64,000 bases of DNA, from NCBI GenBank assembly GCA_016720545.1, contig JADKKK010000003.1, positions 281,516 to 345,515 of the forward strand, written 5' to 3'. This document shows positions 4,157-63,885 of this stretch, piece by piece (within the stretch, counting starts at the first letter, position 1; each line of letters begins with the position of its first letter). This DNA comes from Myxococcales bacterium. Lineage in GTDB: Bacteria > Myxococcota_A > Polyangia > Polyangiales > Polyangiaceae. A program made the position numbers and the translations under genes. The notes below the pieces were generated by a model. The model searched no databases, had not been told where the DNA came from, and saw only the letters and a list, made by a program, of their open reading frames with translations.

Positions 4157-6419
4157 TCAGCGCGCGCCCAGCGGCGCGAACAGGAGCTCCACGTCGTCTT
4201 CCGTTAGGGCGGCGCTGCCCTCGCCCTCGCCCAGAATGGCGTCGGCGACCGTGCGCTTGCGGCGCTGGAGGCGGAGCATCCGCTCCTCGACGCTGCCCGC
4301 GACGTAGAGGTGATGCACGAACACGGGGCGCGCCTGGCCGATGCGGTACGCGCGATCGGTAGCCTGCGCCTGTACGGCGGGGTTCCACCACGGATCGTAG
4401 TGGATCACGGTGTCGGCCCCGGTGAGGGTGAGCCCCGTGCCGCCCGCGCGGAGGCTGATGAGGAAGACGTCGACCTCTTCCTTCTCGAAGCGCCCGATGG
4501 CCTCCGGCCGATCGACGGTGCTCCCCCGTGAGCGTCGTGTAGCGCTTGCCGCGCGCCGCGAGCGCGCCCTCGAGCAGGGTGATCATGCTGGTGAACTGAG
4601 AGAACACCAGCACGCGATGGCCATCGCCGAGCAGCTGCATCATGAGCTCGTCGAACACGCGGAGCTTCGCCGACTCCTGCGCCGAGGCGCCGGTCATGTT
4701 GACGAGGCGCGGATCGCAGCACACCTGCCGCAGCTTGGTGAGGGCGCCGAGAATGGGGATGGTCGAGGCCGAGAGCCCCTTCTTCTTGATGAGCTTGCGC
4801 ACCTCCGCGTGGGCGGCCACGCGGATGCTCTCGTAGAGCTCGCGCTGCTCGCCGCGCAGCTCGATGGGGCGGTGGAGCTCGGTCTTGGGCGGGAGCTCCT
4901 TGGCGACCTCGGCCTTCGTGCGGCGCAGGATGTAGGGCGCGAGCACGCCGCGGAGGGACTCGAGGCGGTCGGCGTTGCGCTGCTTCTCGATGGGGAAGCG
5001 GTAGAACCGGGAGAAGTGGAGCTCGTCGCCGAGGAGGCCGGGGTTCAAGAAGTCGGACAGGGCCCACAGCTCGCCGAGGTGGTTCTCCACCGGCGTGCCC
5101 GTGAGGCAGAGCCTGTGCTCAGCGCGGATGGCGCGCACAGCGCCGTGGGCCCGGCTCTTGTCGTTCTTGATGGTCTGCGCCTCGTCGAGCACCAGGATCG
5201 AGAAGGCGTGCTCGGCGAGCTTCTCCTCGTCGCGGATCGCGACGGGGTAGCTCGTGACGACGAGATCGGCCGCGTCGAAGCGCTCGTAGGCGTCGGCGCG
5301 ATCGGGACCGTGGAGAGGCACGACGCGGAGGCGCGGGGCGAACTTCCCCGTCTCGCGCGCCCAGTTGTTCACGAGGCTCGTGGGCGCGACGATGAGCGCC
5401 GGGCGAGTGAGCAGGCCGCGCTGCTTGAGGAGCGCGAGGTGGGCGATGGTCTGGAGGGTCTTGCCGAGGCCCATGTCGTCCGCGAGGACGCCGCCCACAC
5501 CTCGATCGACGAGGTGCTGGAGCCACGCGAGGCCCTCGCGCTGGTAGGGGCGGAGCTCGGCGCGTAGACCGTCCGGCGCGGCGCAAGGCGGCGGATCGCC
5601 CATGCTGGCCGCGTCGCGCCAGGCGTCGCGCAGCGCGCCGGTGAAGCGCAGCTCGGCGTCTTCGGCCTGAAAGAGCTCGTCGAGGTGGCCGAGGGCGCCC
5701 GCGCGCTGCGGCGGCACCGGGAGCGCGCCGCGCTCGAGCGGCTTCCCGTCGTAGAGCTCGGCGAGCACGCGAAGGATCGCGCGGAGCCGCGCGGTGGGGA
5801 TGGCGAGAAATACGTGCTCTTTCACCGGCACGGCCACGCACTTGCCGGCGCGCCGCGCGATGTCGGCGAGGCCCTCGCCGCTACCGCTCTTCTCGAGGAG
5901 GTCGAGGAGCGCGGGGAGGAGGGAGACGCGCTGTCCGCCGAGCTCGATGCCGAGCTCCACGCCGAACCAGTCTTCGCGATCGGCGCCGCGATCGCGTCGC
6001 TCGACGGCGTCGACGTCGGCGTACCATCGCGGCTCCGGCTCGACGGTCTTCCACTCGTGGGCCTCGTCGACCACGACGCGGAAGCCGAGGCGACGGAGCT
6101 GGGGAACCACCGCGCTCTGGAAGGTGCAGTAGTCCGAGGCCGAGCCCTCGCACGCGATCACGTAGTCGGCGTGGACGCCCGGCGCGGCGGCCATGTCGTC
6201 GAGACACGACAGATCCAGCACGCCGAAGCCCTCGATGAGGCGGCGGGCGCGGAGCTCGGCCGCCCGATCGCGGACGGCGCCGGTCGTGCCCGCGTCTTCT
6301 TCGTCTTCTTCTTCGTCGTCGTCGTCCGCCAGGGCAGGCAGCACGAGACCCCCGTAGTCGAACGAGAGCGCGAGCAGCGGCATGCGGGTGGTCTCGTACG
6401 ACGAGCTGAGGCCGCTCAT
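4157..6419 (-). CDS. SNF2-family DEAD/DEAH helicase (RapA/HepA-like), interrupted by an apparent +1 frameshift near 4518-4522
   Basis: N-terminal part [17 protein letters not shown]...[11 protein letters not shown]...[18 protein letters not shown]... in frame of ORF 3912..6638. Helicase C-terminus ...[48 protein letters not shown] in ORF 4157..4408. Removing one C from the C5 run (a G5 run on the coding strand) joins [19 protein letters not shown]. The 5' start is uncertain (MSGLSSS.. at ~6419 or the upstream ATG at 6638). Confidence 0.85.
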
Positions 6420-22143: not shown

Positions 22144-23362
22144 GGCGGATCGCCGTGGCGGGGTCCATCCTCGCGGCGCGGCGCGCGGGAAGCACGGCGG
22201 AAAGGAGCCCAACTCCCGTGGCGAGGAGGGTCGCGCCGAGGAACAGATCGGCGGTGAGAGTGATCGGGAAGCGCGGCGTCCCGTTGGGATCGACGGCCAA
22301 CCGAGCGAACGAGACCGCGAAGGCCGCGCCCATCGCGGAGCCGAGGAACGAGCCCGAGAGGCCGAGCAGGCCACCCTGGATGAGGAAGATCCGCAGCACC
22401 CGCCGGGCGGGCGTCCCAACGGCTCGTAAGATCCCGATCTCACGCGACTTTTGAACGACCGAGACGATGAGCACGCTCGCGATCCCGAGGGCGACCGCGA
22501 GCACCACGAAGAACTGGATGAGGAGCTTCGAGCTGCTCTGCGCCGAGAGCCCCGCGAGCAGCTCGGCGTTGATCGACATCCAGCTCTCCACGAGGAGCGG
22601 GTGGCGCCCCCGCACGTCGGTCGCGACGCGCTCGGCTTCGAAGACGTCGGAGACCTTCAGCTCCAAGGTGGTCGCGCCGCCCGGCAGCGCGTAGAGCGCC
22701 TGCGCCTGGCGCAGCGAGGTGAGCATCCACGTGGAGTCGACGCCCTTGTTCCCGAGCTCGAAGATGCCGCCGACGGTGACGGTGTCGTCGACGCCCTCTG
22801 AGGTGACGACGCGGACCTTCTCGCCCACCGTCACGCCGAGGTCGGCCGCGAGCCCGCTGCCGAGCACCACGGTCGCCCCCGTGACCTCGAAGCGGCCGGC
22901 GCGGAGGCGCCGCTGAACGTCGATGATCGCCCCGAAGCGATCCGGATCGACGCCGCGCACGACGACGGGACGCTTCGCGAGGCCGCGCTCGGCGAAGCCC
23001 GCGCCGGTCACCGACGGCGACACCGCGATGACCCCCGGGACCCGCTCGAGGTCATGCGCCACGGCGGGCCACTGGTCGATGGACCGGAGCCGCTGCGGCG
23101 CCTTCTGGATGGCCCGCGCGATCACGCGCCCCTCGGAGGGCTCGACGAGCGGACGCGAGCGCTCCTCGGGGACGCGCACCGTCACGTGCGGCTGCGAGCC
23201 GAGGGTCTTGTCGATGAGGCTCGTCTGGAGCCCGGAGATGAGCGCAGAGAGAAACACGACCACGCTCACCCCCACCGACACCGCGGCGAGGATGAGCGCG
23301 GTCTGCGCGCGCTCTTCACGCAGGTAACGAAGCGCGACGAACCACTCGAACGGGAGGGCCAC
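22136..23362 (-). CDS. ABC transporter permease, FtsX/LolC/LolE family
   Basis: 408 aa. An N-terminal TM helix, a large periplasmic domain and the C-terminal FtsX-like 3-TM block (...[24 protein letters not shown]...). Confidence 0.8.
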
Positions 23363-38663: not shown

Positions 38664-38695
38664 GGGGGCGCGTCGGCAGAGCCAGGGGTCGGCCG

Positions 38696-38842
38696 CGTCG
38701 CTCACGGGCGGGCCCTCACCCCTCGCGGGCCCTCACCCCTCGCGGGCCCTCACCCCTCGCGGGCCCTCACCCCTCGCGGGCCCTCACCCCTCGCGAAACG
38801 GCACGAGCCCCACGCGCCCCTCTCCCACGAGGGGAGAGACGC
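38696..38842. repeat. GC-rich repeat block R1: 5 tandem 18-mers (GGGCCCTCACCCCTCGCG) followed by the hairpin GCGCCCCTCTCCCACGAGGGGAGAG
   Basis: Direct reading. Related copies at 44680-44850 and 47452-47515 carry the CCCTCACCCC core in direct or inverted orientation. Confidence 0.85.
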
Positions 38843-38885
38843 GTCCGCGACCGCGACCGGTGGCGGCGCCCCGTAGCATGGGACG

Positions 38886-39272
38886 TCAGGATGTGAGAAC
38901 ACTGACGCCGATGGCGTGTGCGGCGAGCGCCTCAAGATCGTGCGCGTCGGACGTAAGAACAGTGCCATCCGGCTCGGCATAGGCAACGACGAGGGCGTCC
39001 ACGGCGGAGCTTGTCTTGGCAAGCCGACGAAGTTGAGCGGCGCGACGGGCGAGCGATTCGGGGAGATGTTCGATGATGTCGCAGGTCTTAAGGAACTGAT
39101 TCGCTGGGGCATCTCGTCCGGCGTGACCCTGAAGACACTCGACGAGCACGACCGCGGGAACGCGAGGAGGCCACTGACCGGTGCGCAGGAAGGCCCGAAT
39201 CCGAGTGTTGGTGTCCTTGGACTGGCGCGCGAGGAGGGAAACTCCGCCAGAATCGAGAACGAGAGTATTCAT
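38886..39272 (-). CDS. vapC: PIN-domain ribonuclease toxin (VapC-like)
   Basis: MNTLVLDSGGVSLL... small PIN-like protein. The start overlaps the stop of the upstream antitoxin (ATGA). Confidence 0.65.
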   Translation of the reverse strand: MNTLVLDSGGVSLLARQSKDTNTRIRAFLRTGQWPPRVPAVVLVECLQGHAGRDAPANQFLKTCDIIEHLPESLARRAAQLRRLAKTSSAVDALVVAYAEPDGTVLTSDAHDLEALAAHAIGVSVLTS

Positions 39273-39507
39273 CCGACCTTCCGAGTGGACCGGCGGGCGC
39301 CCTTGCGAACCCACGCGTCGGCGCGGGCCTGTTCCGCCGGTGTCGGCTCGCCGAACTTGTCGGTGAGGCTCGCGAGGTACTTCTCCGTCTCGGCGAGCAG
39401 CTCCTGCCGGCGCAGCTCGGCGGCGAGCGCCTTCTGCAAGATCTCCGAAACCGGCAGACCGCTGGCCTTGACCTGCTGGTAGAGCTGCTCGGGAAGGTAG
39501 ACCTGCA
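39269..39507 (-). CDS. vapB: Type II antitoxin (VapB/RHH-like)
   Basis: MARMQVYLPEQLYQQVKASGLPVSEILQKALAAELRRQELLAE, an RHH/ParD-like antitoxin N-terminus, immediately upstream of vapC. Confidence 0.6.
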
Positions 39508-39651
39508 TGCGCGCCATACGCCTAAGTATACACCGAGCGAGCACGGCCTGCACGTGCGCAGGCTCGGCGCAGAATTGGCGATGGAGGTGTGGGTCAGCTG
39601 TGGGTCGGACCCGACGCCACACCTTGAGCTCGGGCCGCGCTCCGGTCCACG

Positions 39652-40581
39652 CTACTGAAGTACCACCTGTCCACCCCAATCTCCCGTTCCGCCCGACGAC
39701 ACGCTCAGGCTAATGTCGAAGGCTCCGGCGTCGAAGGACTTGCTCTCATAGGTGCCGGCTCCAATCAGATAGGAGCCGACCGGCAGCTTCGTGAGCGTCG
39801 CAGTCGGCACGGTAGCTGTCCCATCGGCGAAGTCGTACTCGCACGAGAGCACATGCACGGGGTATCCTCCCGTCTTCCAAAGCGTGAAGCCGATCTTGCC
39901 GACCTCCCCGGATCCTCCGCTCCACGAAAGGACGATATCCTGATTGCGGGGGAGGCGTTGACCGCTCACGAGGACCGGCCCGGTGACCGTAAAACTCTTG
40001 GGTGTTCGGAGGGTCTCGCGGAAGGCAGGCACCGCGCCGCCCGTTGTCGTAATCGTCACGTCCTCCCCGCCCAACCACCCCGGGATGGGCGCTCGCGGGT
40101 AGCGCCCCAGCGGGTTTTGAGCGAGAGTGATCCCACCAGTCGGCAGGAAACTGCTTGTGACTGTGATGGTGCCGGCGGACACCTCGCCCAGAACCGTACC
40201 GTCGCGGGTTGGGCACGCCCGCAGAAGGCACGCCCCCTCCGTCGTGGTGACACAATCTCCGTCCGTGTAATAGCCAAATGCGGCGCCCACAACCGTCTGA
40301 TCGCCACCGTCCGGAAGTCTGCTCATCTGGGCGAAGACGCCCCCCTTCGGGACGCCGCCCTCGATCGATGCGGCATCGCGCCCGCCTGCGTCGACGAAGG
40401 GCGGGCGGGCATCGACGGGCGTGGCGGCGTCGACCGAGCCGGGGCTACCACCATCCCGCCGGGAGATAGGTGCGTCGGAGGACGCGTCGGAGGATGTTGC
40501 CGTGGCGAGCAGGGTGCCGTCGCCTCCGCAGCCCACGAACCACACTAGGAGAAGGAATCCTGCAATGGACGACGCCGCCAT
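39652..40581 (-). CDS. Hypothetical secreted lipoprotein
   Basis: MAASSIAGFLLLVWFVGCGG lipobox. Gly/Thr-rich beta-type sequence. Confidence 0.5.
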   Translation of the reverse strand: MAASSIAGFLLLVWFVGCGGDGTLLATATSSDASSDAPISRRDGGSPGSVDAATPVDARPPFVDAGGRDAASIEGGVPKGGVFAQMSRLPDGGDQTVVGAAFGYYTDGDCVTTTEGACLLRACPTRDGTVLGEVSAGTITVTSSFLPTGGITLAQNPLGRYPRAPIPGWLGGEDVTITTTGGAVPAFRETLRTPKSFTVTGPVLVSGQRLPRNQDIVLSWSGGSGEVGKIGFTLWKTGGYPVHVLSCEYDFADGTATVPTATLTKLPVGSYLIGAGTYESKSFDAGAFDISLSVSSGGTGDWGGQVVLQ

Positions 40582-41317
40582 GATCGTCTTCGGCGATGCA
40601 GCCCTGTGCGAAGCGTGCCACCTCATACTGAGGGAGCGAGCAGAGCACGGAGCCAGAGTCGACACTTCGGACGCCATCTCGAGCCCGCCGACACGACCAC
40701 TTCGGTGAGGGGTAGGTAGAGTGCCAGTCATATCCATTGTCCTTACGAGCAGAGGTCTCACTATGGCCGGCCTTGGCCGGTAGATGGTCGACCGTTGGGC
40801 AATGAGAGCCGAACGTGTGGAACGCAGCAAACCTAGCTAGGCTCGTCGACCAGGGCCTGTCCCTATATTCGGGAAGGGGGCATCTTTCCCGTAGACGTGC
40901 CCGTGCCCGGCGTCTGGGAGGTGCCCGTCGTGGCTGGACCGTCAGCCTTCAGCGCCGTGCGTGGCGCAGAAATGGGCACGAGCAAGAAGTCGGGCACGGG
41001 CACGTTTACGGGCGAGAATTCAGGGACAGGCCCTCGGCCGGCAAGATGGCCGGGCATGTGGCACGCCCTCATGCAGGCGACGTGCCACGGGATCGACCCT
41101 ACACATTGCTCAGAAATGGCTGTCGCTGCTGCCTAAAACAGGGTCGATGGTTCAACCAGTGTAGCGTCACGTTCACACGGACGACCGAGACCGCACAATC
41201 GCGTGGGCGCTGAACGACGCGATCGCGGCGGCCAGCTTGGCGCGGCCGGGCGTGTAAGCGCCGCGGCGGGGTGAGGGCGCGCGACGCCGCGCGGGCAAGG
41301 CGCCGGGACCCCGCCCC

Positions 41318-42826
41318 TCATTGGCGGGCCTTGGCGGGCGCGGCGGTCTCGGCGGCGCGGAGGCGGGCGAGCATGACCGCGGCGGGCTCGTCGGTGGGGT
41401 CCTGGGGGACGAGCTCGCCGCGGAAGGCCTTGGCGAGGATCGTCCCTTCAAGCTGCGGCACCAGGGCCTCGGTAGAATCGACGAACTTCTTTAGGGCATC
41501 GGAGCGACACCACGCCGCCTCAATTCGAGCGGCGGTCAGTTGCTGTTCCTCCAACGGCGCGACGGCAAGTGGAAACGGCGAATCGACCCGATGTTCACAT
41601 GTGGTGACGTGGAACCACCTCTTCCCGCCGCGCTTGCCTGGAGACAATCGGGGAGTTCAACGCCCAGCCATGACGAACCCTGCCGGAGACCTGTTCGGCG
41701 ACGCGAAAGTGCATCATGCGCTGCGAGATGCACACTTCGACTCGGTCAGGGACAGGCGCTGCGATCCCGAAACGCTCGCCCTCTCGCGAATAGAAGATGT
41801 CTCCCGCTTCTGGAACGAGGCGGCTTACCTGTTCGGCATACGTCTCGCGCGCGACACATCGTGCCTGTGCCAGAAGGAGCCTCCCAGGGATTACGTCCGC
41901 TGTACGAATTGCAGGGAGACCGGCCGCAACGTAATCGGGCGTTCGGTGAAGACAGTCCACGATGTGAGTCGTGACCTCCTCCACACTCGCCCAACACCAC
42001 CCCTCCGGCAACTCCGGCAACCCCGTCGCATCGACCGGCTCGGGCTCCTTGTACTTCCCCTTCCACGCGTCATCCCGCGGGGCCTTCCCCTTGGCGGTCA
42101 TCTTGGCGAGCTCGGCCTCTTCCCACTTCTTCCGGCGCTCCACGCGGATGCGCTTCAAGAGCTCGCTCGCGGGCTCCACGTCTCTGTTCTTCGCGCGCCA
42201 GTCCTTCGTGAGGTCCCCGCGAAAGGCCGCCGCGAGGATCGACTGGCGGAGCTTCTCGAGCAGCGGCGGCACAGCGTCGAGCGCCGCGCGGGCGCGACGG
42301 GAGCGAGCTTGGAGGGATTCGAGCTTGGCGACGATGCGGCGTTGTTCGTTGAGGGGGGGGAGCGCCGTGGGCCATGACGACATACGGTCAGCCCCAAGGT
42401 GGTTGATGCCCACTCCCTTCCCCGCCGCCGCGAACTTTCCGAGGCGAGCGTCAGCGAGGAAGTGCAGGTGCAGATACTCAGGGTCCGGTCCTCGCGACCG
42501 AACGCGAATGAGCGTGTTCTGAAAGCAGCAACCGTCAACTTCGTTTCGCCAGAGCGCCGGCTTCCCGACCTCACTCGCGCTTCCGGACGCTTCCGGATAA
42601 GAGAATGTCGCCCCCTCAGCTCGTAAGACACGAACTCCCTTGGCGAGAAGTCCATCTCCTTCACGTCTTCGAGGCTAATCCCATTCCACGTTACGTTCGC
42701 GGCTCGCATGTAAGGCCGCATGTGTTCGCCCTTCGCCCTGTCTGGCGATCGCTGGCGCCCTAGTCGCACCTCTGCCACTTCGTCGAGGCGTACCCGAAGC
42801 CACCCGTTCGGAAGAGGGTCGCTCAC
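41318..42826 (-). pseudogene. hsdS: Type I restriction-modification specificity subunit HsdS, disrupted by at least two frameshifts
   Basis: Three reading-frame pieces. TRD1 MSDPLPNGWLRVRLDEVAEV... (42826 downward). Central conserved region and TRD2 ...LPPLNEQRRIVAKLESLQ...LPEGWCWASVEEVTTHIVDCLHRTPDYVAAGLPAIRTADV (ORF 41595..42413). C-terminal conserved region LEEQQLTAARIEAAW...LKKFVDSTEALVPQLEGTILAKAFRGELVPQDPTDEPA (ORF 41318..41647). Confidence 0.75.
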
Positions 42827-44258
42827 GCCCCCAGCTCCTCTTGCAGCGCCGCCATCTCCTCCAGCGCCACCGAGAGCTGCGCGACAATCTCCGCCGCGAT
42901 CTCCTCCGGCTCCGGCAAGTCCGCGTGGTCGGTCACGCTCTCATCCCGCAGCCACGAGATATCCAGGTTCTCCCCCCGCTTCGCGATCTCCTCCCGCGTG
43001 AACTTCCGGAACCTCCCGTCTCGCCCTGGTCCTTCCGCTTGCTCTTCCCTAGCGGATCCGCCCCGTAGGCCTTCTCGAACTCCGCGAAGTGCGCGCGCGT
43101 GAACGGCGTGCGCTTGCCGAAGCTCGGCATGTTGGTGCGCAGGTCGTAGAACCACACGGCCTTCGTGTTGCCCTTGTCCTGCTTCTTCTCCCCCCGCGTG
43201 AAGAAGAGCACGTTGGTCTTCACGCCCTGCGCGTAGAAGATGCCCGTGGGCAGCCGCAGGATGGTGTGCAGATCGCACTTGTCCATCAAGTCGGCGCGCA
43301 CCTGCTTTCCCACGCCCTCCTCGAAGAGCACGTTGTCCGGGAGCACCACCGCCGCGCGCCCGCCGGGCACGAGGCCTCGGTAGATGTGCTGGAGGAACAC
43401 GAGCTGCTTGTTGCTCGTGGGGTACGTGAGGTCGTCGCGCGTGGGGGCGCCGCCGCCCTTCTTGGTGCCGAAGGGGGGATTCGTGAGGATCACGTTCGCC
43501 TTCGGCAGGTTGGCGCCCGAGGGGCCGAGCGTGTCGCCGAGCACGAGGTCGCCCTCGATGTCGTGGAGCATGGCGTTCATGAGCGCCAGGCGCTGCACGT
43601 CGGCCACGAGCTCCATCCCCTGGAAGGCCTCGCGTCGCTGGAAGTTCTGCTTGGCCACGGGCAAGTCGTGGAGATCGTCGGTGTTCGCCTTCACGTACCT
43701 GTCGGCGTTGATGAGGAATCCCCCGGTGCCGATCGCGGGATCTTGGATGATTTCGCCCGGCTGGGGCTTCACGAGGGCGACCATGCTCTCGATGAGCGCG
43801 CGCGGCGTGAAGTATTGCCCCGCGCCGCTCTTGGTCTCCTCCGCGTTCTTCTCGAGCAGGCCCTCGTAGAGGTCCCCGAGCCCCTCGGACTTGGCGCTGT
43901 ACCAGTCGAGCGCGTCGATCGCCTCGACCACCGTGCGCAGGTTCCGCGGCTGCCGGAACGAGGTGCCCGCGTTGGCGAAGATCGCCTGCACGCGCCCCGA
44001 GCCTTTGCCGCCGAGATCGATGAGGAGCTTCTTGTAGAAGTCGAGCAGCTCCACGCCCTCTTTGTTGACGAGATCGCCCCAGCGATAGCCCTTGGGGAGC
44101 TGGTCCTCGGTGCCTGTCTCCTTGGTCATCTTGAGGAAGAGGAGATAGGTGAGCTCGGTCACGTACTGGAGATACGTGATGCCGTCGTCACGGAGGACGT
44201 GGCAGAGGTTCCAGAGCTTCTGGACGATGTCGTTCGTGGTCGGCGCGGCGGGTGGCAT
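42823..44258 (-). CDS. hsdM: Type I restriction-modification N6-adenine DNA methyltransferase HsdM, with an apparent -1 frameshift near 43040 affecting the last ~65 aa
   Basis: MPPAAPTTNDIVQKLWNLCHVLRDDGI...QYFTPRALIESMV...DPAIGTGGFL...LTNPPFG... C-terminus ...RFRKFTREEIAKRGENLDISWLRDES...LPEPEEIAAEIV lies in ORF 42823..43278. Adding one G in acGGGagg joins the frames. The stop overlaps the hsdS start. Confidence 0.85.
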
Positions 44259-44679
44259 GTCGGGGGCGAAGGTAGCATGGGCGCGCGCCTCGCCGGCCTG
44301 TGCCCTGCCCGGCCCGCCTACTCCTGCGTCGAGCGAGGGATCCGGACCACCCACAGGCGCGTGGCCCAGCGGAGCGAGAGCTTCAGCGCTCGCGAGCGCG
44401 ATGCACGTCCTCGGGGGCGATCCCGAGGTCACGACCGGACAGGATGTCCTCGATCCTCCGATCGACCTCAGGCGGCACCGTCTCACCCGAGGTGTCCTCC
44501 GGCGCGCGCACCATCACCAGGACGGCGGGGTGGCTGCGCATGTCCTCGGGCCACTGCTCGAGCGCCACGCGCTCCGCCTCGGTGGTCTCGGCGGTGTCGA
44601 GCTTGCGCGCGGTGTTCGGCGACATGGTCGAGGTCTAGCACGCGTCGGCGAGGGCGCGCGCGGTGAGCGCCCGCGACGC

Positions 44680-44850
44680 TCGCGGCCCTCACCCCCTCGC
44701 GCAGCGGCACGAGACCCACGTGCCCCTCTCCCACAAGGGGAGATGGGCCCCTTCCGGAGCAGCTCGTGTGGCCCCTCTCCCCTTGTGGGAGAGGGGCACA
44801 AGTCGCCCGCGCCGCTCACGGGCGGGGTGAGGGCTCACGGGCGTGGTGGG
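44680..44850. repeat. GC-rich repeat block R2 containing a 23-bp perfect inverted repeat (GTGCCCCTCTCCCACAAGGGGAG...CTCCCCTTGTGGGAGAGGGGCAC) and GGGCGGGGTGAGGGC
   Basis: Direct reading. Same motif family as R1 and R3. Confidence 0.8.
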
Positions 44851-44985
44851 TGGGTCGCCCTTGTCTTCCGGGCTCGACGCTGAGCTGACGGCCCTTGGCG
44901 GCGGCGAACACCGGGCGCCCCGCGCGCCCAGATCGCTCGAGCGCACGGCAGGTCGGAGCAGGACGTGCTATTTTTCGAGAATGGA

Positions 44986-45184
44986 CAACGGGCCCGCGGC
45001 CCGCGCCGCGCGGCGCCGGGCGACCTGGAACTGGGAATGCCGAGTCGCGAAGACCTTCGCGGAGCACGAGCAGGACGGCCTCGATTTTTGGGCGGATGCG
45101 CCGAGCTCGGCGAAGCTCGACGCCATGTGGGACCTCATCGTCGAGGCTTGGTTGCTCGGAGGAAAGCGTGGACCTGCCCCCTGA
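44986..45184 (+). CDS. Small hypothetical protein, possibly the partner of the downstream nucleotidyltransferase-like gene
   Basis: [60 protein letters not shown]. Overlaps the downstream ORF. No known motif. Confidence 0.3.
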
Positions 45185-45590
45185 TTTCAGGCATCTGTTC
45201 TCGAAATTCGCCGCTTCGAGCGTTGACTACTTGATGATCGGCGGCTGGGCGGTGAGCTTCCACAGCGAGCCGCGCTATACTAAAGATCTCGATCTGCTCT
45301 TGGTCGGGAGTGACGACAATCTCGCGAGAGCGGCGGAGGCCCTCGGCGCCTTCGGGGCGCCACGTTCGGTCATCGACCTGCTGCTCGCGCTCGGGCCGGA
45401 GGAGTTCAGCTCACTCGTCGCCGTCGCAGGCCAGACGCTCGAACGCGTCCCCGCGGCTCACGCGAGTCCATCGAGGATCCCTCGCGACCTCCGCAAGCGC
45501 CGCGCGGTCCTCGTCGCCAAGCGCGGGCCCCTCCTCCGCGGACGCGAACGCGAGGGAGACGGCCTTCTTTGCGGTGGGAGCCATGACTGA
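45167..45590 (+). CDS. Minimal nucleotidyltransferase (MNT/AbiEii-like) domain protein, possible toxin/antitoxin component
   Basis: ...FAASSVDYLMIGGWAVSFHSEPRYTKDLDLLL... matches the G-[GS]...DhDLhh nucleotidyltransferase core. Start tentative (GTG 45167). Confidence 0.45.
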
Positions 45591-45740
45591 GGAGTAGCGC
45601 GTCAGGGCGCGCCCGTCACCCACGCCCCGCGACACGTCCGAGAGGCAGCTCTGACGCCGTCGGTGAGCTGCGTGCCGCGGAGGCGCGCCCGTCACGGACC
45701 GCTCGGGTTGCTCGGTCACGGCGCCGGAGGTATCGTGCTC

Positions 45741-46845
45741 CGCATGAGCGCGGGGTCTCCGTTGGGGTGTGCGCTACGCGAGCAGCGTGACGCCCTCGGC
45801 TGTTCAGCCGAGCGACTCGCCGCGCTCTCCGAGCTGCCCGTCGACAGAGTGCTCGCCCTCGAGCAAGGCGCGCAGGCGACGACCCGTGAAATCGCGAAGC
45901 TGGCGTCAGCCCTCGCCGTGGATCCCGCCGCGCTGTGGCGAGGCGAGGTCAGCCTGCCTCGAACGACCGCGCGATTCCGTGCGCCGAGCGGCGTCGCGTC
46001 CTCGCGGAGGGCGACGCGCGGCTGCTCGCGCGGGCCGCAGAGGCGGGGCGCGTCCTCGCGCATCTGCGCTCGCTGCGCGGCGAGGAGGCGGCGTCCGTCG
46101 TGGCCCGGAGGAGGGTGTCCGGCGTCGCCGGGTGGCCCGAGCCCTGGGACCAGGGCTACCGGCTTGGCGCGAGGCTGCGAGCCGACCTCGGGCCCGGCAA
46201 GGCGCCAATTCCTTCGGTGCAGCGCCGTCTCGGGGAGCACGGCGTGCACGTCGCCTGGAGCGCGTTCGAGAGCAGCGCCGTGATCGCGGCCAGTCTCTAC
46301 GAGCACGGCGCGGCGCCCGTCATCCTGCTCAATACGAGGTCGCCGAGGGCGAGGGCGAGGCTCCACGCCGAGCTGTCCTGGCTCAGCGAGCTCTGCCATC
46401 CGTGGTCGACGGCGGCGAGACGGACCTGCTCACGCTCGTCTCCCGCGGCGTCGACGCGACCGAGGTCGAGCAACGGGCGAACGGCTTTGCCCCTAGCTTC
46501 ATCGTGCCCGGAGGGTGGATATCGCCCCACACCACCGACGTCCGACAGCTCGCTCTCGACGTCGCCACGGAGTGGGGGCTGAGCTTCGAGGGCGCTCTCT
46601 GGCACTTGAAGAATGCGCAGCACATCGGGGCGAGGGATGTCGAAGAGGAGCTGCGGCGGGAGGCCGTCGTCATTCCAGAGGGTGCGTTCGAGGGCGACAT
46701 CGAGCGCCGAGAGCCGGCGCATCTCCGTCTGGACGTGACGATCGGTCCCCTCGCATACGGGGCGCTCTCCGACGTGACACTCGGCGCCTTCGAGGCCGAC
46801 ATGATCTCCCGAGGTCGCGCCGTCGAGATCCTCGCGCTCGCATGA
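45741..46845 (+). pseudogene. XRE-family HTH plus ImmA/IrrE (DUF955) metallopeptidase-type regulator, split over three reading frames
   Basis: HTH LGCALREQRDALGCSAERLAALSELPVDRVLALEQG (ORF 45663). Middle region ...AASLYEHGAAPVILLNTRSP... (ORF 45935). C-terminal ...FIVPGGWISPHTTDVRQLALDVATEWGLSFEGALWHLKN... (ORF 45769..46845). Confidence 0.6.
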
Positions 46846-47451
46846 CGTGGCTCGTCGACGACGGGCCCCTCGGCCTCCTCGCGCGCACGTGGGGACCGTC
46901 CTGGTCGTGGCCTCCCCGGGGAGAGGGGCGATCACCGTCGTGCGGGAGGGGGGTGGGGCCGACGGCGCAGCGAGTGACAAGTCGGGAGGCGGGACCAAGC
47001 TCCTCGCCATGTGCGCGCCGTCCAGTCTCCCGAGCGTCGCGGTGCACGACTCCCTGGTGGGACGAGGCCGCGGCAGTCCGCTACGGACACCTCCGGCCCA
47101 GGTAGGGCCTCGCAGGCGACGCGCGACCTCGGGCGAGGAGACGCCTCGATCGCGGGCCGCGCTCACGGAGTGCCCCAGGGAGGGCGACGCGGTGCTCGCC
47201 ACGATGGACAAGCGCGCGGCCTACACGCCTGCGGCGAAGGCTCGCTGGGGCGAGTGGGGACCCCGTTCGACTTATGGGATCACCTGAGAGGGCCGGCGCT
47301 CGTGTCGCGCGCAGCCATCGAGCGCTCGCCGACCTCACCACGAAGCAGGATCACGGGCTCGCGGATGTGCCACTTACACAAGCGGTAGAGCGTCCGACCC
47401 ACGCGAGGGGAATGGGCACCGCCGCGCCGCCGAGAGGCGGGCGCATGGCCC

Positions 47452-47515
47452 CGCGACGGGCGGGGTGAGGGGCTCGCGGGCGCGACTCTCGCGGGCGGGG
47501 TGAGGGCTCGCGGCC
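47452..47515. repeat. GC-rich repeat block R3 (two copies of GGGCGGGGTGAGGG(G)CTCGCGG)
   Basis: Direct reading. Reverse-complement orientation of the R1 core. Confidence 0.75.
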
Positions 47516-47692
47516 CCCCACCGGACGGGAGCAGGGCCCACCAGGGCGCAGGCGAGAGAGCCCCCCCCCCGCACGGCTCGCGCGCAGCGCCTCCCAGAGG
47601 ACCGTCTCCGATCGCGTCTGAGTCCTCCGCAGCTCCCGGGCTCGCTCCGTCATTCTCCGCGCCATCGACCTCTCCCGTCACGCGCCCGTCAG

Positions 47693-50600
47693 CTATCCCA
47701 CGTCCCGCCAAACCTCTTCCGCCAGCTCCCCCAGCAACATCTCGAGCTTCCCGTCGAACACCTTGTTCAGCCGCGCGAAGCCGCCGTCGGTCTTGAACTG
47801 TCCCGCATCCAGCGAGGCCTTGTCCACCACGGTCTCGAGCTTCACCTGCTTGGCGATGCGGTCGAGCCACTTGGCCTGGGGCTCGGTGAGCTTGTGGGCC
47901 TTCCGGAGCCGCGCCACCGCGCGATCCACACGCTCGCCGTAGGGCACGAGCGGTGAGCCGAGCGCGGCCTGGCGGATGTAGCCGACGATGGTCGCGGCGA
48001 CGTCCTCGTTCTTCTGCTCTTTCCATGCGGTCTGCACCGACTTTTCGCCGTAGCCCTCCTCGTCGAGCGCGAGCTTGAGCGCCTTCAGGTCCGCGCGCGT
48101 GAGATCGCGCGGGCGCTGCACCACGACCAGCAGCGCGGGGAGCTGGTTCATGTGGCGCGTGACGAAGTCGCGGAAGGACTCCAAGTAGTCGGCCGGCGGG
48201 CGACTCCCGTGTTTGCCGTAGCCGCGCGTCACCTCGCGGAGGCCGTCGGCGTGCTCGGACACGAGCACCTTGTACTCGCCGCCGCCCACCGTGCGGTCGA
48301 GGAACGGCGCGAGGGAGGGGTGGGCCCGCAGGTAGGCGGCCGCGTCGAGCAACGTGCCGTGCTTCAGGAGCTGCGTGAGCTCGCGGAGGTCCATGCCCGC
48401 CGCGCCCTGGAAGGGCTCCTGCGCGTCTCCTTGGAGCGCCCGCTTCTTGCGCTGGAGCTTGGCGAGGAGCTCCTCGAGCGACAGGCGCCGGTGCTCGTCG
48501 TTCTTCCCCTCAGGATCTCCTTCGTGAGCTGCTCGAAGGTCACCTTCGGATTGACCACGACCGGCTTCATGTCGGTCACGCTCTCGAGCGCGGCGTAGAG
48601 ATCCACCGCGTCGAAGACGCGAAAGCGCTCCTTGCCTATCTCGGGGCACAGGCGCGTCGCGCGCCCCAGCATCTGCTCGTAGAGGATGCGGCTCCGCACG
48701 CGGCGCAGAAAGACCAGGTTGGCGATCTTCGGCCGTCGATCCCCGTCGTGAGGAGATCGACCGTGACGGCGATGTTCGGGTGGCGCTCGTTCCGGCAGCG
48801 GCGAATGGCCTCGAGCGGCCGGTCGGTGGTCCCCGTGATCTTGAGCACCGCGTCGTCGTCGACCTCGCCGAACTTCTTCGTGAGCTCCCCCTTCAGCAGC
48901 GTGACGACCATGTCGGCGTGCTCGTCGGTGGCGCAGAAGACGAGGGTCTTCTCGTCCTCGCTCGGATCGATGTGGTTCTGGACGAGCTTCGGCGAGCACG
49001 ACGCGGTTCCAGCCCCTCGGTGATGACGCGGCGGTTGAAGGCGTCGATCTCGAAGTCGACGTTCTCGGCGAGCTTCTCCTTGTGGAGCGTCTGCGCCTTG
49101 CGATCGAGGACGAGCACCTCCTCGTGGGCCTCGTAGTGAATGCCGTCGTGCGCCTGGTGCGTGACGATGCGAATGGGCGGCTCGTGGTCCACCAGGAAGC
49201 CGTCCACGACGGCCTCGCGGTAGCCGTAGGAGTACACCGGGGCGCCGAAGATTTCGCTCGTGTGGAGCGCGGGTGTGGCGGTGAGGCCGATCTTGGTGGC
49301 GTCGAAGTGGTCGAGCACGCGCCGGTACTTCGAGATGTAGTCGTCCTCGTCGCGAAACTCGAGATCACGCTCGGAGAGCTCGCGGTCGAGCAAATACCCT
49401 CGATGGCACTCGTCCACCACGACGCAGTCGTACTGGTCGACGGGCGGGATGTTGGCCTCGCTCGCGTCGTCGTGAGGGCCGAGCACGCGCTTCACCATGG
49501 CCTGGATCGTGGCCAGCTGGAGCTTGGTCTCGCGGTCCGGCTTGAGATCGCCGAGCTCCTTCACGTCGAAGATGTCGGTGAAGGTCTGCAGGTTCTCGAG
49601 GCGGAGATCCTTGAGCGCGTCCCCGGTCTGGCGGCCGAGCGCGCTCCGGTCGACGAGGAAGAGCACGCGCCGGAAGCGCTTCGTCTTGAGCAGGCGATAC
49701 ACGAGGCCGATGCACGTGCGCGTCTTGCCGGTGCCGGTCGCCATGGCGAGGAGGAGCCTCACGCTGCCCCTCCTCGAGGCCCGCCTCGACGGCGAGGATG
49801 GCCTTCCGCTGGTACGCGCGGTCGATGTACGGCATCGGCTCGACCTGGAGCTTCGCGTGCGCTTCGTCGACGTCCTGGCGCAGGAGGTCGACGAGCCCGT
49901 CGGGCGTATACCAGCCCTCCAGGGCGGTCGGATGATTCTGGGGCCGGCGCGCGTCGAGAAACCAGATACCGCTCTTCGCGTGGAACTGCCGGAGGTACGC
50001 GCGGCCGTTCGTGGCGAAGAGGAACGGCACTTTGTGCGCTCCCCACGGTGCCTCGGGGAGAGACTCGCCGCCCTTCACGAGGTATCCCGCGGAGTACCGC
50101 TTGGCCTGGGGAATGACCCCCGACACGTCCTTGTGCTTGCGCTTCGCCTCCACCACGCCGACCACCTGGAGGCCGGCGAAGAGCACGTAGTCGGCCCAGC
50201 CTTCCCGGCCGTCCACGCGCGTGGGCCACTCGGCGATCGCGAGGTTCTTGCCCTTCGTGGGGCGCGCCCCTCGCTCGAACGTGAGCCGTTGGGAGTCGGC
50301 CTCCCAGCCCGCCGCGCGGAGCTGATGGTCAATCAGCCGCCGCGTGGCGGCCTCGTCGAGCTGAATGTCCTCGCTCGCCTTGTGGGCGACGCCGATGGTC
50401 TGCGCGAGCGCGGCCGGAGGCATCGCGACCGCCGCGGCCTGGAGGGCCTCGAGCTCCTCCGCGAGCTTCTTGTTCTGGGCGAGGAGCGCGGCGCTCTTCT
50501 TCGCCTCGGCCTCGAGCTGCTCCTTCGCGAGCTCCTCCCAGATCGCCGCGTCGTCACGCGCCTTCTGCGCGCGCTGCTCGGCCGTCGTGCGCCCCGCGAG

Positions 50601-51230
50601 CTCGGCCTCGGCGGCCTCGCGCGCCTCCTCGATCGCCCGCTGGGCGGCCTCGAGATCCTTCGTGCGCGCGCGGACGTCGTCGCGCAGGCGCTGGATCTCG
50701 TCCTCGAGGGCGGCCTCGGGGGCGCTGCGGGGAGAGGGCGGCACGAACGGGCCCGGATCGAACTTGCGGTTGTTGCCGAAGCTCCGCTGAAACCAGACCC
50801 CAGCTCGCGCGCCATGCGGAGCTGGTGGAGCGCCTCGCCGTGGTCTCCCCGGCCCTCGTGCACCGCGGCGTTGCCGACCCGCCGGAGATCGTGAAAGAGC
50901 GAGCGCTGCGTGGCGCCGATGACGTTCCGCTCCCAGAGCCGATCGATGAGCTGCTGCTGCCCGTCCTGAGGCCCCACGAAGAGCCCGACCTTGGCCGCCG
51001 CGCGCTGCGCGAGCTGCTCACCGAACGCGCGGAGCTTGAAGAGCGTGACCGAGGATCCCCGCGAAGTGCTCCTCGGCCTGCGTCGCGAGCGCCACGAGCC
51101 GCGCGTCGTGGTGCGCGAGATAGGCGAAGTTGGGGTGCGGGCGGGCGGCGGGGAGGCATGGGCGGAACGTGGAGGATACACGGATCGAGGGTAGGTTCCC
51201 AGGTGATCGGGCCAGTGTCCGACTCCCTCC
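47693..51230 (-). pseudogene. hsdR: Type I restriction enzyme R subunit HsdR with N-terminal DUF4145 domain, interrupted by at least five frameshifts
   Basis: Pieces in different frames. DUF4145-like NFAYLAHHDARLVALATQAEE...LFKLRAFGEQLAQRAAAKVGL...LFHDLRRVGNAAVHEG..HQLRMARELG (about 51225-50760). HsdR_N ...IDHQLRAAGWEADSQ...VVEAKRKHKDV (ORF 49365..50744). Helicase motifs LLAMATGTGKTRT, VVDECHRG (ORF 48893..49762). TVDLLTTGID (ORF 48636..48911). VFLRRVRSRILYEQMLGRATRL (ORF 48364..49368). EcoEI_R_C-like tail (ORF 47693..48649). One resolved junction is a missing G in ctGGGGtctgg. Confidence 0.8.
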
Positions 51231-51450
51231 ACGGAGCGAGCGTCATTGACGAGTCGAGCGCGCGGATGCTTCGCGGGGCTCGAGGGGCGCCGGCACGCGG
51301 GGGCGCGGGTCGACGTGCGCACCGGCGTTGCCAAGCCAGCGCCAACCGGCGACGCTCGGCGTCGCGCTGCCCGACTGGGATCACCTCTACGAGGCGGCAT
51401 CCGTTGAGCTCGTCGTCTCTGCGGACGCGAGGAACGTGACGCGGACATCT

Positions 51451-52449
51451 TTACCCCGACAGGACATCCTCCAGCGTCGCGGCGGTGAGCACCCGCTCCG
51501 CCCAGGTGTCGAGCGTGGCAGCGTCCGCGGCGTCGAGTCGCGCGTTCGCACCCTCGGGGAGCGCACCGAACCGGAGAGCGAGCTGCTTGCGCAACATGAC
51601 ACGTCGACCTTGGACCTCTCCGACGATGATTCCTCGTGCCTCTCCCTTTTGCATCAACTCTTCGCCTGCGGTCATGAGCGTCTCCTTCAAGCGTTCGTCC
51701 GGGAGCGCCCCACGAAGCTGTTCCAGTACGATCCGCGACTCCGCGGGGTGGACCATCATCACATAGCGCAGGACGGTGTCCAGCGCCGCCCTCCCGTGTG
51801 GCGCCATCATGACCTCGAGCGCCACGTCCGCCCACGCGCCCAGATGGCGCACGAGCTCCTCAGGGTCGCGCGCGCGGCGGAAGCAATAGAGCACCAACCG
51901 GCCGAGCGCGGACATCGCGCGCGCGCGAAGCGTTTCGTCGGTCTCGGTGACGAGCTCGTCGAGCACGAAGCGATGGCGCAGCACGTGGGCGCCCGCGGCG
52001 AGGAGGGTCGCTTCGTCGAGATCGTACAGCTCCTCGAGCGAACGCGCCGCCGTCCAGCCAGCGTCGCCGTGGTGAAGGACGACAGGGACGAGCGCGGGGA
52101 GCACCGTCGCGCCGGGGTTCTCCTTCAGCCACGACTCCCAGATGCGAACGGCATAGACCACCAGCCGAAAGGGCATGAGCGGGTGCGGGGTGCTCTGATG
52201 CTCGTAAAGGAGATAGAGACGGGCCTCGCGACCCGAGAGCGACACGCGGAACAGAAGATCGGTGTGGCGGCTCTTGAGCTCGGCGTCCACGAACGAGCCA
52301 GGGACGGCCTCGAGCGTGTCCCAGGAGAACCGCGCCGCGAGCCCCTTCGGGAGCGCCGTGCGGAGCGCTCCCTCGGCGTGCCGCGGGTCCGCGAACGTGG
52401 ACTTGAAGAGAGCGTCGTGGGGGTCGGGGGCACGTGCCCCGTATGGCAA
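51451..52449 (-). CDS. Rpn-family recombination-promoting nuclease / putative transposase (PD-(D/E)XK, YhgA-like)
   Basis: DALFKSTFADPRHAEGALRTALPKGL...FSWDTLEAVPGSFVDAELKSRHTDLLFRV...LLYEHQSTP..., the characteristic Rpn N-terminal nuclease domain. Confidence 0.7.
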   Translation of the reverse strand: MPYGARAPDPHDALFKSTFADPRHAEGALRTALPKGLAARFSWDTLEAVPGSFVDAELKSRHTDLLFRVSLSGREARLYLLYEHQSTPHPLMPFRLVVYAVRIWESWLKENPGATVLPALVPVVLHHGDAGWTAARSLEELYDLDEATLLAAGAHVLRHRFVLDELVTETDETLRARAMSALGRLVLYCFRRARDPEELVRHLGAWADVALEVMMAPHGRAALDTVLRYVMMVHPAESRIVLEQLRGALPDERLKETLMTAGEELMQKGEARGIIVGEVQGRRVMLRKQLALRFGALPEGANARLDAADAATLDTWAERVLTAATLEDVLSG

Positions 52450-53077
52450 GTTCGATGCCAGCGCGAGCAGGCAGGAATCCTCGTGCGGCGTGGGGGCGCC
52501 GACTGTCCGGGACGGCTCATGGGGTGTCCTGGACGGCGCCCCATGCGCGGCCTCCCGGTCGAGGGAGGCGAGGTGATATCGTCAGCGCGTCAGAAGGGTC
52601 ACGGACGACACGCCAGCGTCGATCCCAAGCTCGCGCGCCAGAGCGACCAGGCACGCGACGACTCGCCCACGGTTGACGCGCACATAGCGTGTGCCGTTGG
52701 ACCTGGAGCGCGGAGCAGGGCGCCGTCCATTCGCTTGCCCACGAATGCCGCGCGACGGCGCCGGATAAGAGTTGGGGGGGTTCCACCCGGACGGTTTCCT
52801 ACGTCACGGTCTCTTGCAGGCGCTGACGCCGTGCAGCGCCGTGCAGGCCACCTGGCACGGCGGCGGGGGAGTGGCGCCCGGCGTCGCAATTCTGCCGTGG
52901 AGCACGACGTGAGCCCGCGTTGCCCCCCGCTCCGCTTGCTGGGCGCCCAGGAGACCCCGGCGCCCCGACACCCACAACCCACCGCCGCCCTGAACGCCCG
53001 CCCCTCCCCACCGCCCACCACCACCCCCTTTTCTTCCCCCCGTCCCTTGCTCGCCGGCCCCCTTGAAGTAGGGTGAC

Positions 53078-57860: not shown

Positions 57861-57945
57861 GGAGAGCTGACCGAGTGGCCGAAGGTGCCTGATTCGAAAT
57901 CAGGTGTAGGGAAACCTACCAAGGGTTCGAATCCCTTGCTCTCCG
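57861..57945 (+). tRNA. tRNA-Ser (anticodon CGA)
   Basis: Cloverleaf. Acceptor GGAGAGC/GCTCTCC plus discriminator G. D-arm ACC-GAGTGGCCGAA-GGT. Anticodon stem CCTGA/TCAGG with loop TTCGAAA. Long variable arm TGTAGGGAAACCTACC. T-arm AAGGG-TTCGAAT-CCCTT. Confidence 0.9.
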
Positions 57946-58009
57946 CAAGTTGCCACGACCCGAGGGGGGTTGGTCGAGCTCGTTGAGGCTCGACCGCCGT
58001 GCCAGTTCC

Positions 58010-63482: not shown

Positions 63483-63885
63483 GCCCGCGGCTCGCGCGGC
63501 GCGGTCGGCGCCGTCGGCCCCCGCGGAGGCCGAGCACGAGGAGGTTCCCGTACGACCGGTGCAGCTCCGCGACGAGCTCGCCTACCTCGGGCCGGCTCAC
63601 GAGGTCGCAGGCGAGCCCTTCCCACACGACCGTGCCCGCAGCGACCGACGCGTGCTCCGCCGGAGAGAGCGACCGGACGAAGCCCTCGAACTGCGCCTCG
63701 GAGGGCCGTGGAGCAGAGAATTCGCTTGGGTTTTTCAGCGGTTGGCACCAGGGAAGCCACCTCAGGCGGTGGTCCGCGTGAACCTGAAGGTGAGCCCGAA
63801 GGCGCGAACGGAGGGTCGATGGCGACCCCGAGCCGGAGGCGAGGTGGCGACCTGACCGACATTCCCACGGAAGGCGCGCCTACTC

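Follow-up and report, generated by a model that had tools for sequence, protein, structure and literature searches.

The closest described relatives of the locus studied here are EcoKI, the type IA restriction-modification (R-M) system of Escherichia coli K-12, in which hsdR, hsdM and hsdS follow one another in this order on one strand, and RosmerTA, a type of anti-phage toxin-antitoxin system in which diverse toxins (RmrT) are paired with an antitoxin (RmrA) that contains an ImmA (protease) domain (PMC10440598). We analyzed a stretch of 64,000 nucleotides from a contig of a Myxococcales bacterium (the whole stretch is called the window, and positions are counted from its first letter). A preliminary description, made from the letters of the window, had recognized a defense island between about 38.7 and 51.2 kb, composed of a vapBC pair, the three genes of a type I R-M system, and an XRE-HTH/ImmA gene with a nucleotidyltransferase (NTase) gene embedded among them, and had read its many frameshifts as erosion after horizontal acquisition, with sequencing error as the alternative. 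By comparison with other assemblies of the same species, we find that the frameshifts in hsdR, hsdM, hsdS and the ImmA-type (Peptidase_M78, hereafter M78) gene are very probably consensus errors in a low-accuracy stretch of ~24 kb in a long-read metagenome assembly and not decay. Judged from its sequence, the locus is a normal EcoKI-family (type IA) R-M locus of a wastewater Polyangiaceae/Myxococcota population.

As the preliminary description had it, hsdR (~47693 to 51167), hsdM (42823 to 44258), and hsdS (41318 to 42829) are all present in the canonical order on the minus strand. HsdR aligns with its EcoKI counterpart end to end by BLASTP (41% identity, residues 11-1157 versus 6-1170, 1204 columns), HsdM shares 55% identity over its full length, and HsdS shares 23% over its full length, as expected given the variable target-recognition domains (TRDs). 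The locus differs from EcoKI in having ~3.4 kb extra between hsdR and hsdM. This DNA contains repeats, what is left of a DUF559 gene, and a cassette in the opposite orientation, which consists of a small open reading frame (ORF), an NTase-like gene, and an XRE-M78 gene. It also differs in its longer HsdS (~500 versus 464 amino acids, aa), in its host (a Polyangiaceae bacterium, not E. coli K-12), and in its broken reading frames, which we judge to be artefactual: alignment to intact homologs counted 15 indel events in hsdR and 1 in hsdM, and hsdS is split into at least three frame segments.

Frameshifts across the window

Genes were called from plots of GC phase at third codon positions (GC3) and from six-frame translations. 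The stitched HsdR, used as a query, retrieved an intact protein of 1157 aa at 98% identity and hundreds of homologs of ~1160 aa, and reference DNA was fetched around that intact HsdR and around proteins that the window and a relative share without any difference. The reference loci, taken from three NCBI metagenome-assembled genomes (MAGs) and from ENA, JGI, and Logan wastewater contigs, represent up to 7 independent same-species assemblies, cover the window from ~800 to 64000, and match it at 97.7-99.9% nucleotide identity. A difference was termed window-private if every source covering the site had the same state and the window another; between 40 and 48.5 kb the source depth was 1-4 independent assemblies.

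The differences are very unevenly distributed. Positions 1-40 kb contain 3 private indels and 4 private substitutions, whereas 40-64 kb contain 73 private small indels and ~126 private substitutions, the first indel lying at 40509 and the last at 63795. Everywhere between 53 and 62 kb, all 4-7 covering sources contradict each window-private indel. Each indel of the affected zone for which several sources allowed a check proved private relative to up to 7 assemblies, as the sequencing-error alternative of the preliminary description would have it. The genes follow the same division. Of the 36 reference genes in 1-40.6 kb, 34 are intact, most of them 100% identical, whereas 40.6-64 kb has frame breaks in at least 11 of its ~19 genes, and a 542-aa gene and a glyoxalase gene there also lose their termini. 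The breakage had been described for the island, but it begins at 40.5 kb and continues as far as the window does (64 kb). The genes broken around and beyond the island are those for a Transposase_31 protein, a 450-aa protein, a DUF6016 protein, a 246-aa protein, two YceI proteins, and a patatin, the last of which is split into six frame segments. Since the frame breaks reach at least 13 kb past hsdR and hit at least 7 unrelated chromosomal genes, they are not specific to the island or to gene function.

Genuine decay, in which an R-M and toxin-antitoxin island acquired horizontally was pseudogenized by small indels, has several observations on its side. The sequence does contain the frameshifts, the GC content of the island is lower than that of its surroundings (64-67% at 39-44 kb versus 70-72% in the flanks; ~70% for the window), a Transposase_31 gene and repeats lie close by, consistent with acquired DNA, and two lesions are real, the truncations of the NTase and DUF559 genes. 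The indel density in hsdR (~4 per kb) is also somewhat above the average of the affected zone (~3 per kb); nevertheless, 60-62 kb, outside the island, reaches ~10 per kb, which rules out an island-specific enrichment. Against decay, the same indels break the unrelated genes listed above, patatin as badly as hsdR, while the preceding 40 kb are almost free of them, and the vapBC-like pair and a 309-aa gene at the opposite edge of the island are unharmed; the vapBC-like edge is untouched because it lies inside the clean zone. Up to 7 other assemblies contain intact alleles that are 98-100% identical. Finally, decay would have to place ~75 tiny indels in one contiguous block at ~99% nucleotide identity, and we know of no mutational basis for such a pattern. 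We consider erosion of the island, as proposed in the preliminary description, highly improbable.

The accuracy of the sequence also varies within the affected zone. At 53.2-56.1 kb there is a clean patch with 0 private indels and 0 private substitutions, so accuracy changes at the kilobase scale, as expected with patchy short-read polishing.

Character of the indels

Deletions make up 64 of the 81 indel events (79%) and insertions the other 17, and 78 of the 81 are 1-2 bp long. Of 73 sites, 41 have CCC or GGG no more than 5 nt away, compared with 22.5 expected (p = 7e-6). A basecalling bias at methylation motifs of the GAG/CTC type found no comparable support (38 observed versus 31.9 expected), only G/C homopolymers being enriched. 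A pure homopolymer-error model was rejected as well, because about half of the indels lie in no repeat. Homopolymer slippage alone does not account for the spectrum, which is better described by a general long-read consensus of low coverage. Wherever 5-7 sources are available, there are more private indels (26) than private substitutions (11), which also speaks against decay. About 50% of the private substitutions are non-synonymous, compared with 27% of the polymorphisms among the references (73% synonymous); this test of codon position and synonymy indicates that the private substitutions are unconstrained, but, as it does not separate sequencing error from neutral decay, we do not treat it as decisive. 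We thus observed directly that the indels are private, that they occupy one contiguous zone regardless of gene function, that they have the spectrum of long-read errors, and that intact copies of the genes occur in same-species assemblies.

Short-read contigs cross the hsdM site, two sites in TRD1 of hsdS, and four sites in the M78 gene in one frame, and they give an intact HsdR, HsdM, N-terminal half of HsdS, and M78 protein. Single intact ORFs for hsdR and the ImmA-type gene, which the preliminary description had named as the outcome that would argue for an intact system, are likewise found in other assemblies of the species.

The converse possibility is that the window is correct and the reference assemblies are wrong. 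The references do hold a few private indels of their own: the long-read MAG L001 has one at the equivalent of 42184 and L008 one at the equivalent of 24489. On the other hand, up to 7 sources, from different groups and methods and including Illumina-only ENA, JGI, and Logan assemblies, agree against the window, and where the window gives fragments, the references encode long, uninterrupted ORFs that match their families over the full length. An error shared by the references is hardly conceivable.

The private indels of these other long-read MAGs differ from those of the window, and a zf-HC2 gene in L009 and L024 is also among the genes that such single-base indels split. Since gene-splitting private indels occur in other long-read MAGs of the same species, residual frameshifts are general in these assemblies. 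The three private indels in the clean first 40 kb of the window are single-base insertions at 4523, 26559, and 30078; two of them break a gene for a 768-aa SNF2-family helicase and an ECF sigma-factor gene, and the third is intergenic.

The type I restriction-modification genes

The hsdR gene, which had been described as broken into multiple segments, is indeed divided into at least five large frame segments and several short ones. Its private indels lie at 48511, 48730, 48988, 49013, 49757, 50048, 50722, 50728, 50797, 51054, 51056, 51135, 51137, 51140, and 51150. The intact 1157-aa HsdR that is 98% identical to the stitched protein is encoded on an 814-kb contig, and the 90% cluster to which it belongs has five further intact 1157-aa members, from assemblies at NCBI and ENA. 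This intact relative (P0001) matches NCBIfam NF008521 ("type I restriction-modification system endonuclease") with 1486 bits against a cutoff of 729, over positions 4-1121 of 1123, a family that the copy in the window matches only after frame correction. HsdR also gives a full-length match to the PADLOC model REase_I.

The N-terminus of HsdR, with a DUF4145 domain and a coiled coil, had been singled out as noteworthy. The alignment with EcoKI HsdR spans the DUF4145-like N-domain, the coiled coil, HSDR_N, the ResIII/helicase motor, and EcoEI_R_C, and the E. coli K-12 protein itself gives a DUF4145 match. A novel N-terminal fusion is thereby ruled out, and the apparent extension is the standard type IA architecture.

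The hsdM gene, 478 codons long in relatives, carries a single private 1-bp deletion at 43013-43017, in agreement with its earlier description as nearly intact with one -1 shift. Its product matches Pfam N6_Mtase (E = 8.5e-74) and HsdM_N (E = 9e-9), and the PADLOC model MTase_I over its full length (734 bits).

The stitched HsdS protein of ~500 aa, with two TRDs, aligns at 97-100% coverage to HsdS proteins of 500-540 aa and matches NF007278 in two stretches, and Pfam Methylase_S was found on TRD1 only. The frame of hsdS changes at 42593/42610 and in a cluster at 41552-41685, consistent with the earlier report that this gene too is segmented. The TRD1 allele of hsdS in the window (41318-42829) is shared with a short-read contig (L020, 2150-2563) and with protein P0129, and another TRD1 allele is present in the MAG contigs L001 (18879-20400) and L019 (11750-13400), L019 differing in TRD2 too. 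These differences point to natural swapping of specificity within the wastewater population, as far as can be judged from aligned alleles.

It is conceivable that most of the frameshifts in the window are artefacts, but that hsdS is truly inactivated, or phase-variable in the population, and for this reason broken in all three long-read MAGs. The frame of hsdS is indeed broken in the window, shifts at least 2 times in L001 and several times in L019, the TRD alleles vary by strain, so that hsdS is a recombination hot spot, and a full-length identical allele was not recovered. Nevertheless, the breakpoints differ per assembly, and at 42184 L019 sides with the window against L001, as if the errors were independent. 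In the short-read contig L020, and in P0129 up to residue ~270, a single frame runs through the N-terminal half, and the break sites are without the simple-sequence repeat typical of phase variation. Strain-variable regions are also where short-read polishing of a metagenome consensus would be expected to fail. We regard a true loss or phase variation of hsdS as very unlikely, and with the frameshifts taken as consensus errors, the R-M locus is probably functional.

The preliminary description also considered the genes inserted within the hsd operon worthy of comparison. Relatives whose HsdR is 74-78% identical hold other small genes in the slot between hsdR and hsdM (DUF4357, or an ORF of 97 aa), so an insertion there is not unusual. 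Upstream of hsdM in the window, a conserved 80-aa ORF (44383 to 44625, minus strand) is intact, and profile searches gave no family match for it.

The plus-strand cassette

The XRE/ImmA and NTase genes that had been placed inside the hsd locus are present there, and the first of them is read in three frames, as described; they lie, though, on the plus strand, facing the hsd genes, and the NTase gene is a truncated remnant. The cassette begins with a small ORF of ~67 aa (44981 to 45184), directly 5' of the NTase-like gene, conserved on the JGI contig L038 and assigned to no family. It continues with the NTase-like gene (45168 to 45590, 140 aa, of the DUF6036/DUF2204/AbiEii clan) and ends with the XRE-HTH/M78 gene (45735 to 46845), an ImmA/IrrE-like and RmrA-like gene.

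The M78 gene has private indels at 45999, 46363, 46387, and 46400, and intact versions of 361-370 aa occur in other assemblies, including short-read contigs. The 370-aa protein matches 15 PADLOC RmrA models (best E = 5e-21) and Pfam Peptidase_M78 (E = 4e-10); HTH_3 and HTH_31 score just below their cutoffs. It resembles RmrA in combining an XRE-type HTH with a Peptidase_M78 domain, and the locus resembles RosmerTA in having a small co-directional gene directly upstream. In contrast to RosmerTA, the upstream gene matches no RmrT model and encodes an NTase-clan protein whose C-terminal half is lost in this species.

The NTase-like protein contains GG-x13-DLD, to be compared with the signature hG[GS]-x9-13-Dh[DE]h, and its Pfam AbiEii match (E = 0.003, 17.9 bits) is below the cutoff of 22.5. 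Its homologs, a family of ~150 aa, carry DUF6036, DUF2204, and AbiEii domains. Only the first ~80 codons are homologous to these: the homology ends at 45408 and is followed by ~270 nt of unrelated DNA (45408-45678), so that the C-terminal FGxPPxRVD...KRAaGRpxDL half of the complete ~150-aa domain is missing. The breakpoints are identical in the relative L001 (assembly GCA_963852875.1), and the truncation, as read from both sequences, is real and common to the two. GC3 phase over the replaced 3' half favors a minus-strand ORF of 57 aa (~45414-45587). A HEPN/HepT partner gave no match among the scanned proteins of the cassette.

An intact pair is found elsewhere: the unrelated JGI contigs L038 and L039 encode a complete NTase of 150 aa followed by an M78 protein of 361-367 aa, flanked by the same palindromic repeats. 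Such a pair is present on JGI contig Ga0119867_1012770. In this genome an intact RosmerTA pair of NTase and M78 was rejected because the NTase gene is truncated. The cassette of the window (44669-47540) is bracketed on both sides by a ~190-nt palindromic repeat, as also seen on L038 (1-2750) and L039, and this bracketing may indicate that the cassette moves by a repeat-mediated process. It could be imagined that the cassette is a repeat-borne, mobile, RosmerTA-like defense module with an NTase toxin of the AbiEii/DUF6036 type, which was inserted in the slot between hsdR and hsdM and has here lost its toxin and kept its protease-regulator. We mention this candidate as unlikely, given the sequences at hand.

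Repeats, PIN pair, and neighboring genes

GC-rich palindromic repeat blocks had been reported in the intergenic gaps, and we located them at 38.8, 41.26, 44669-44858, and 47.35-47.54 kb. One of them, an imperfect palindrome of ~190 nt at 44669 to 44858 (arms 44685-44749 and 44770-44834), forms the left border of the cassette, and related pieces make up the other three. At 38708 to 38842, a tandem array of a 17-nt unit (GCGGGCCCTCACCCCTC, 5.2 copies, 38708-38795) is followed by a short palindromic element of the same family. The core motif GCCCTCACCCC occurs 14 times, compared with 3.3 expected. These repeats resemble the repetitive extragenic palindromic (REP) and miniature inverted-repeat transposable element (MITE)-like repeats of high-GC bacteria in being imperfect palindromes of ~190 nt with a shared core motif, intergenic only, and strain-variable in copy number. 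They differ in that some copies accompany the 17-nt array; an Rfam scan of 37-53 kb matched no family to them.

Between the M78 gene and hsdR there is a structurally divergent gap (46851 to 47583), in which ~600 nt of the window have no match in the relatives and pieces of the repeat family lie at 47348-47540. The DUF559 remnant (47519-47653, minus strand, ~43 codons) extends 70 nt past this gap, and the corresponding gene in L019 encodes 115 aa. Over 46851-47653, L001 (13582-14851) and L019 (6430-7773) both have the DUF559 gene and three extra repeat copies of ~187 nt. On this comparison the truncation of DUF559 in the present strain is real.

At the other edge of the island, a vapBC pair had been announced. 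An intact pair of minus-strand genes is indeed present at 38886-39508, but the label rests on profile matches below threshold. The PIN-like (VapC-like) gene (38886 to 39272) encodes 128 aa and is identical to copies in other assemblies. Its product matches NCBIfam VapC (E = 2.3e-5, positions 12-122 of 125) with 24.5 bits, below the cutoff of 80, and Pfam PIN weakly (E = 0.025). The putative antitoxin of 79 aa (39269 to 39508) has a CcdA-like N-terminus (20.5 bits, below the cutoff of 22.4). As in VapBC systems, the smaller ORF lies upstream and ends 4 nt inside the PIN-like gene, and acidic residues of the 128-aa protein occupy PIN-like positions; unlike in VapBC systems, the profile scores of the pair are all below curated thresholds. 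From the gene arrangement the vapBC label is plausible. Next to the pair, the gene for the 309-aa protein (39652 to 40581, minus strand), which has no assigned family and has an N-terminal signal- or lipoprotein-like sequence, is intact except for an in-frame 3-bp difference at 40509-40511.

On the far side, the Transposase_31 (YhgA-like) gene (51451 to 52547, minus strand) directly adjoins hsdR, a position kept in both related MAGs, and a private deletion of 1 bp at 52423 interrupts its frame. The sole tRNA gene of the window, tRNA-Ser (cga) at 57861-57946, lies 6.7 kb from hsdR and is thus not an obvious island boundary. Within an otherwise near-identical stretch of 20 kb, 10 substitutions relative to L008 fall in 300 nt (22754-23058) of a MacB/FtsX-type ABC permease gene; local recombination or hypervariability of this segment may account for the cluster.

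Probable origin of the low-accuracy stretch

The stretch that begins at ~40.5 kb and reaches the end of the window (64 kb) or beyond, patchy as it is, was very probably built from noisy long reads without effective short-read correction, probably because short-read coverage was low or ambiguous when a Nanopore R9 metagenome assembly was polished. The 140-aa NTase-like protein is deposited as MBL0194239.1 and the PIN protein as MBL0194233.1 (locus tag IPQ09_, a 617.6-kb contig of a "Myxococcales bacterium" MAG). JADIZX, a Polyangiaceae MAG of the same species and the same accession series, comes from the study of Singleton et al. 2021, in which R9.4.1 Nanopore reads were assembled with CANU and polished with Racon/medaka and one Illumina Racon round with --include-unpolished (PMC8012365). 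For JADIZX, a table reports two values that look like depths (~13 and ~15) and probably represent mean Illumina and Nanopore coverage. A single Illumina round with --include-unpolished leaves uncorrected patches where short reads map poorly.

Several points weigh against consensus error as the explanation. About half of the indels lie outside any repeat or homopolymer. That the MAG of the window stems from the same Nanopore study is deduced from the accession and locus-tag series, and low coverage and failed polishing over 40.5-64 kb are deduced rather than observed. With only 1-4 sources in 40-48.5 kb, some differences counted as private may be strain variation, and at the indel cluster 41552-41685 the relative L001 is itself noisy. 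Among the homologs searched, a full-length intact hsdS of exactly the allele in the window was not found, and hsdS is frame-broken in all three long contigs, at differing sites. Taking these points into account, we still hold consensus error in a poorly polished stretch to be the best explanation by far, with few real structural lesions, the 3'-truncated NTase gene and the truncated DUF559 gene.

Implications

The EcoKI-family system described here is one more of a known kind, with swapping of HsdS TRDs inside a species and an accessory cassette that is lineage-specific, and leaves the current understanding unchanged. Its apparent ruin carries a caution for the study of defense genes: islands in long-read MAGs may look decayed where a stretch of contig has escaped short-read polishing, and pseudogene counts or accounts of eroding islands drawn from such assemblies would be wrong. 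Even without the reads, error can be told from biology by setting a sequence beside other assemblies of its species.

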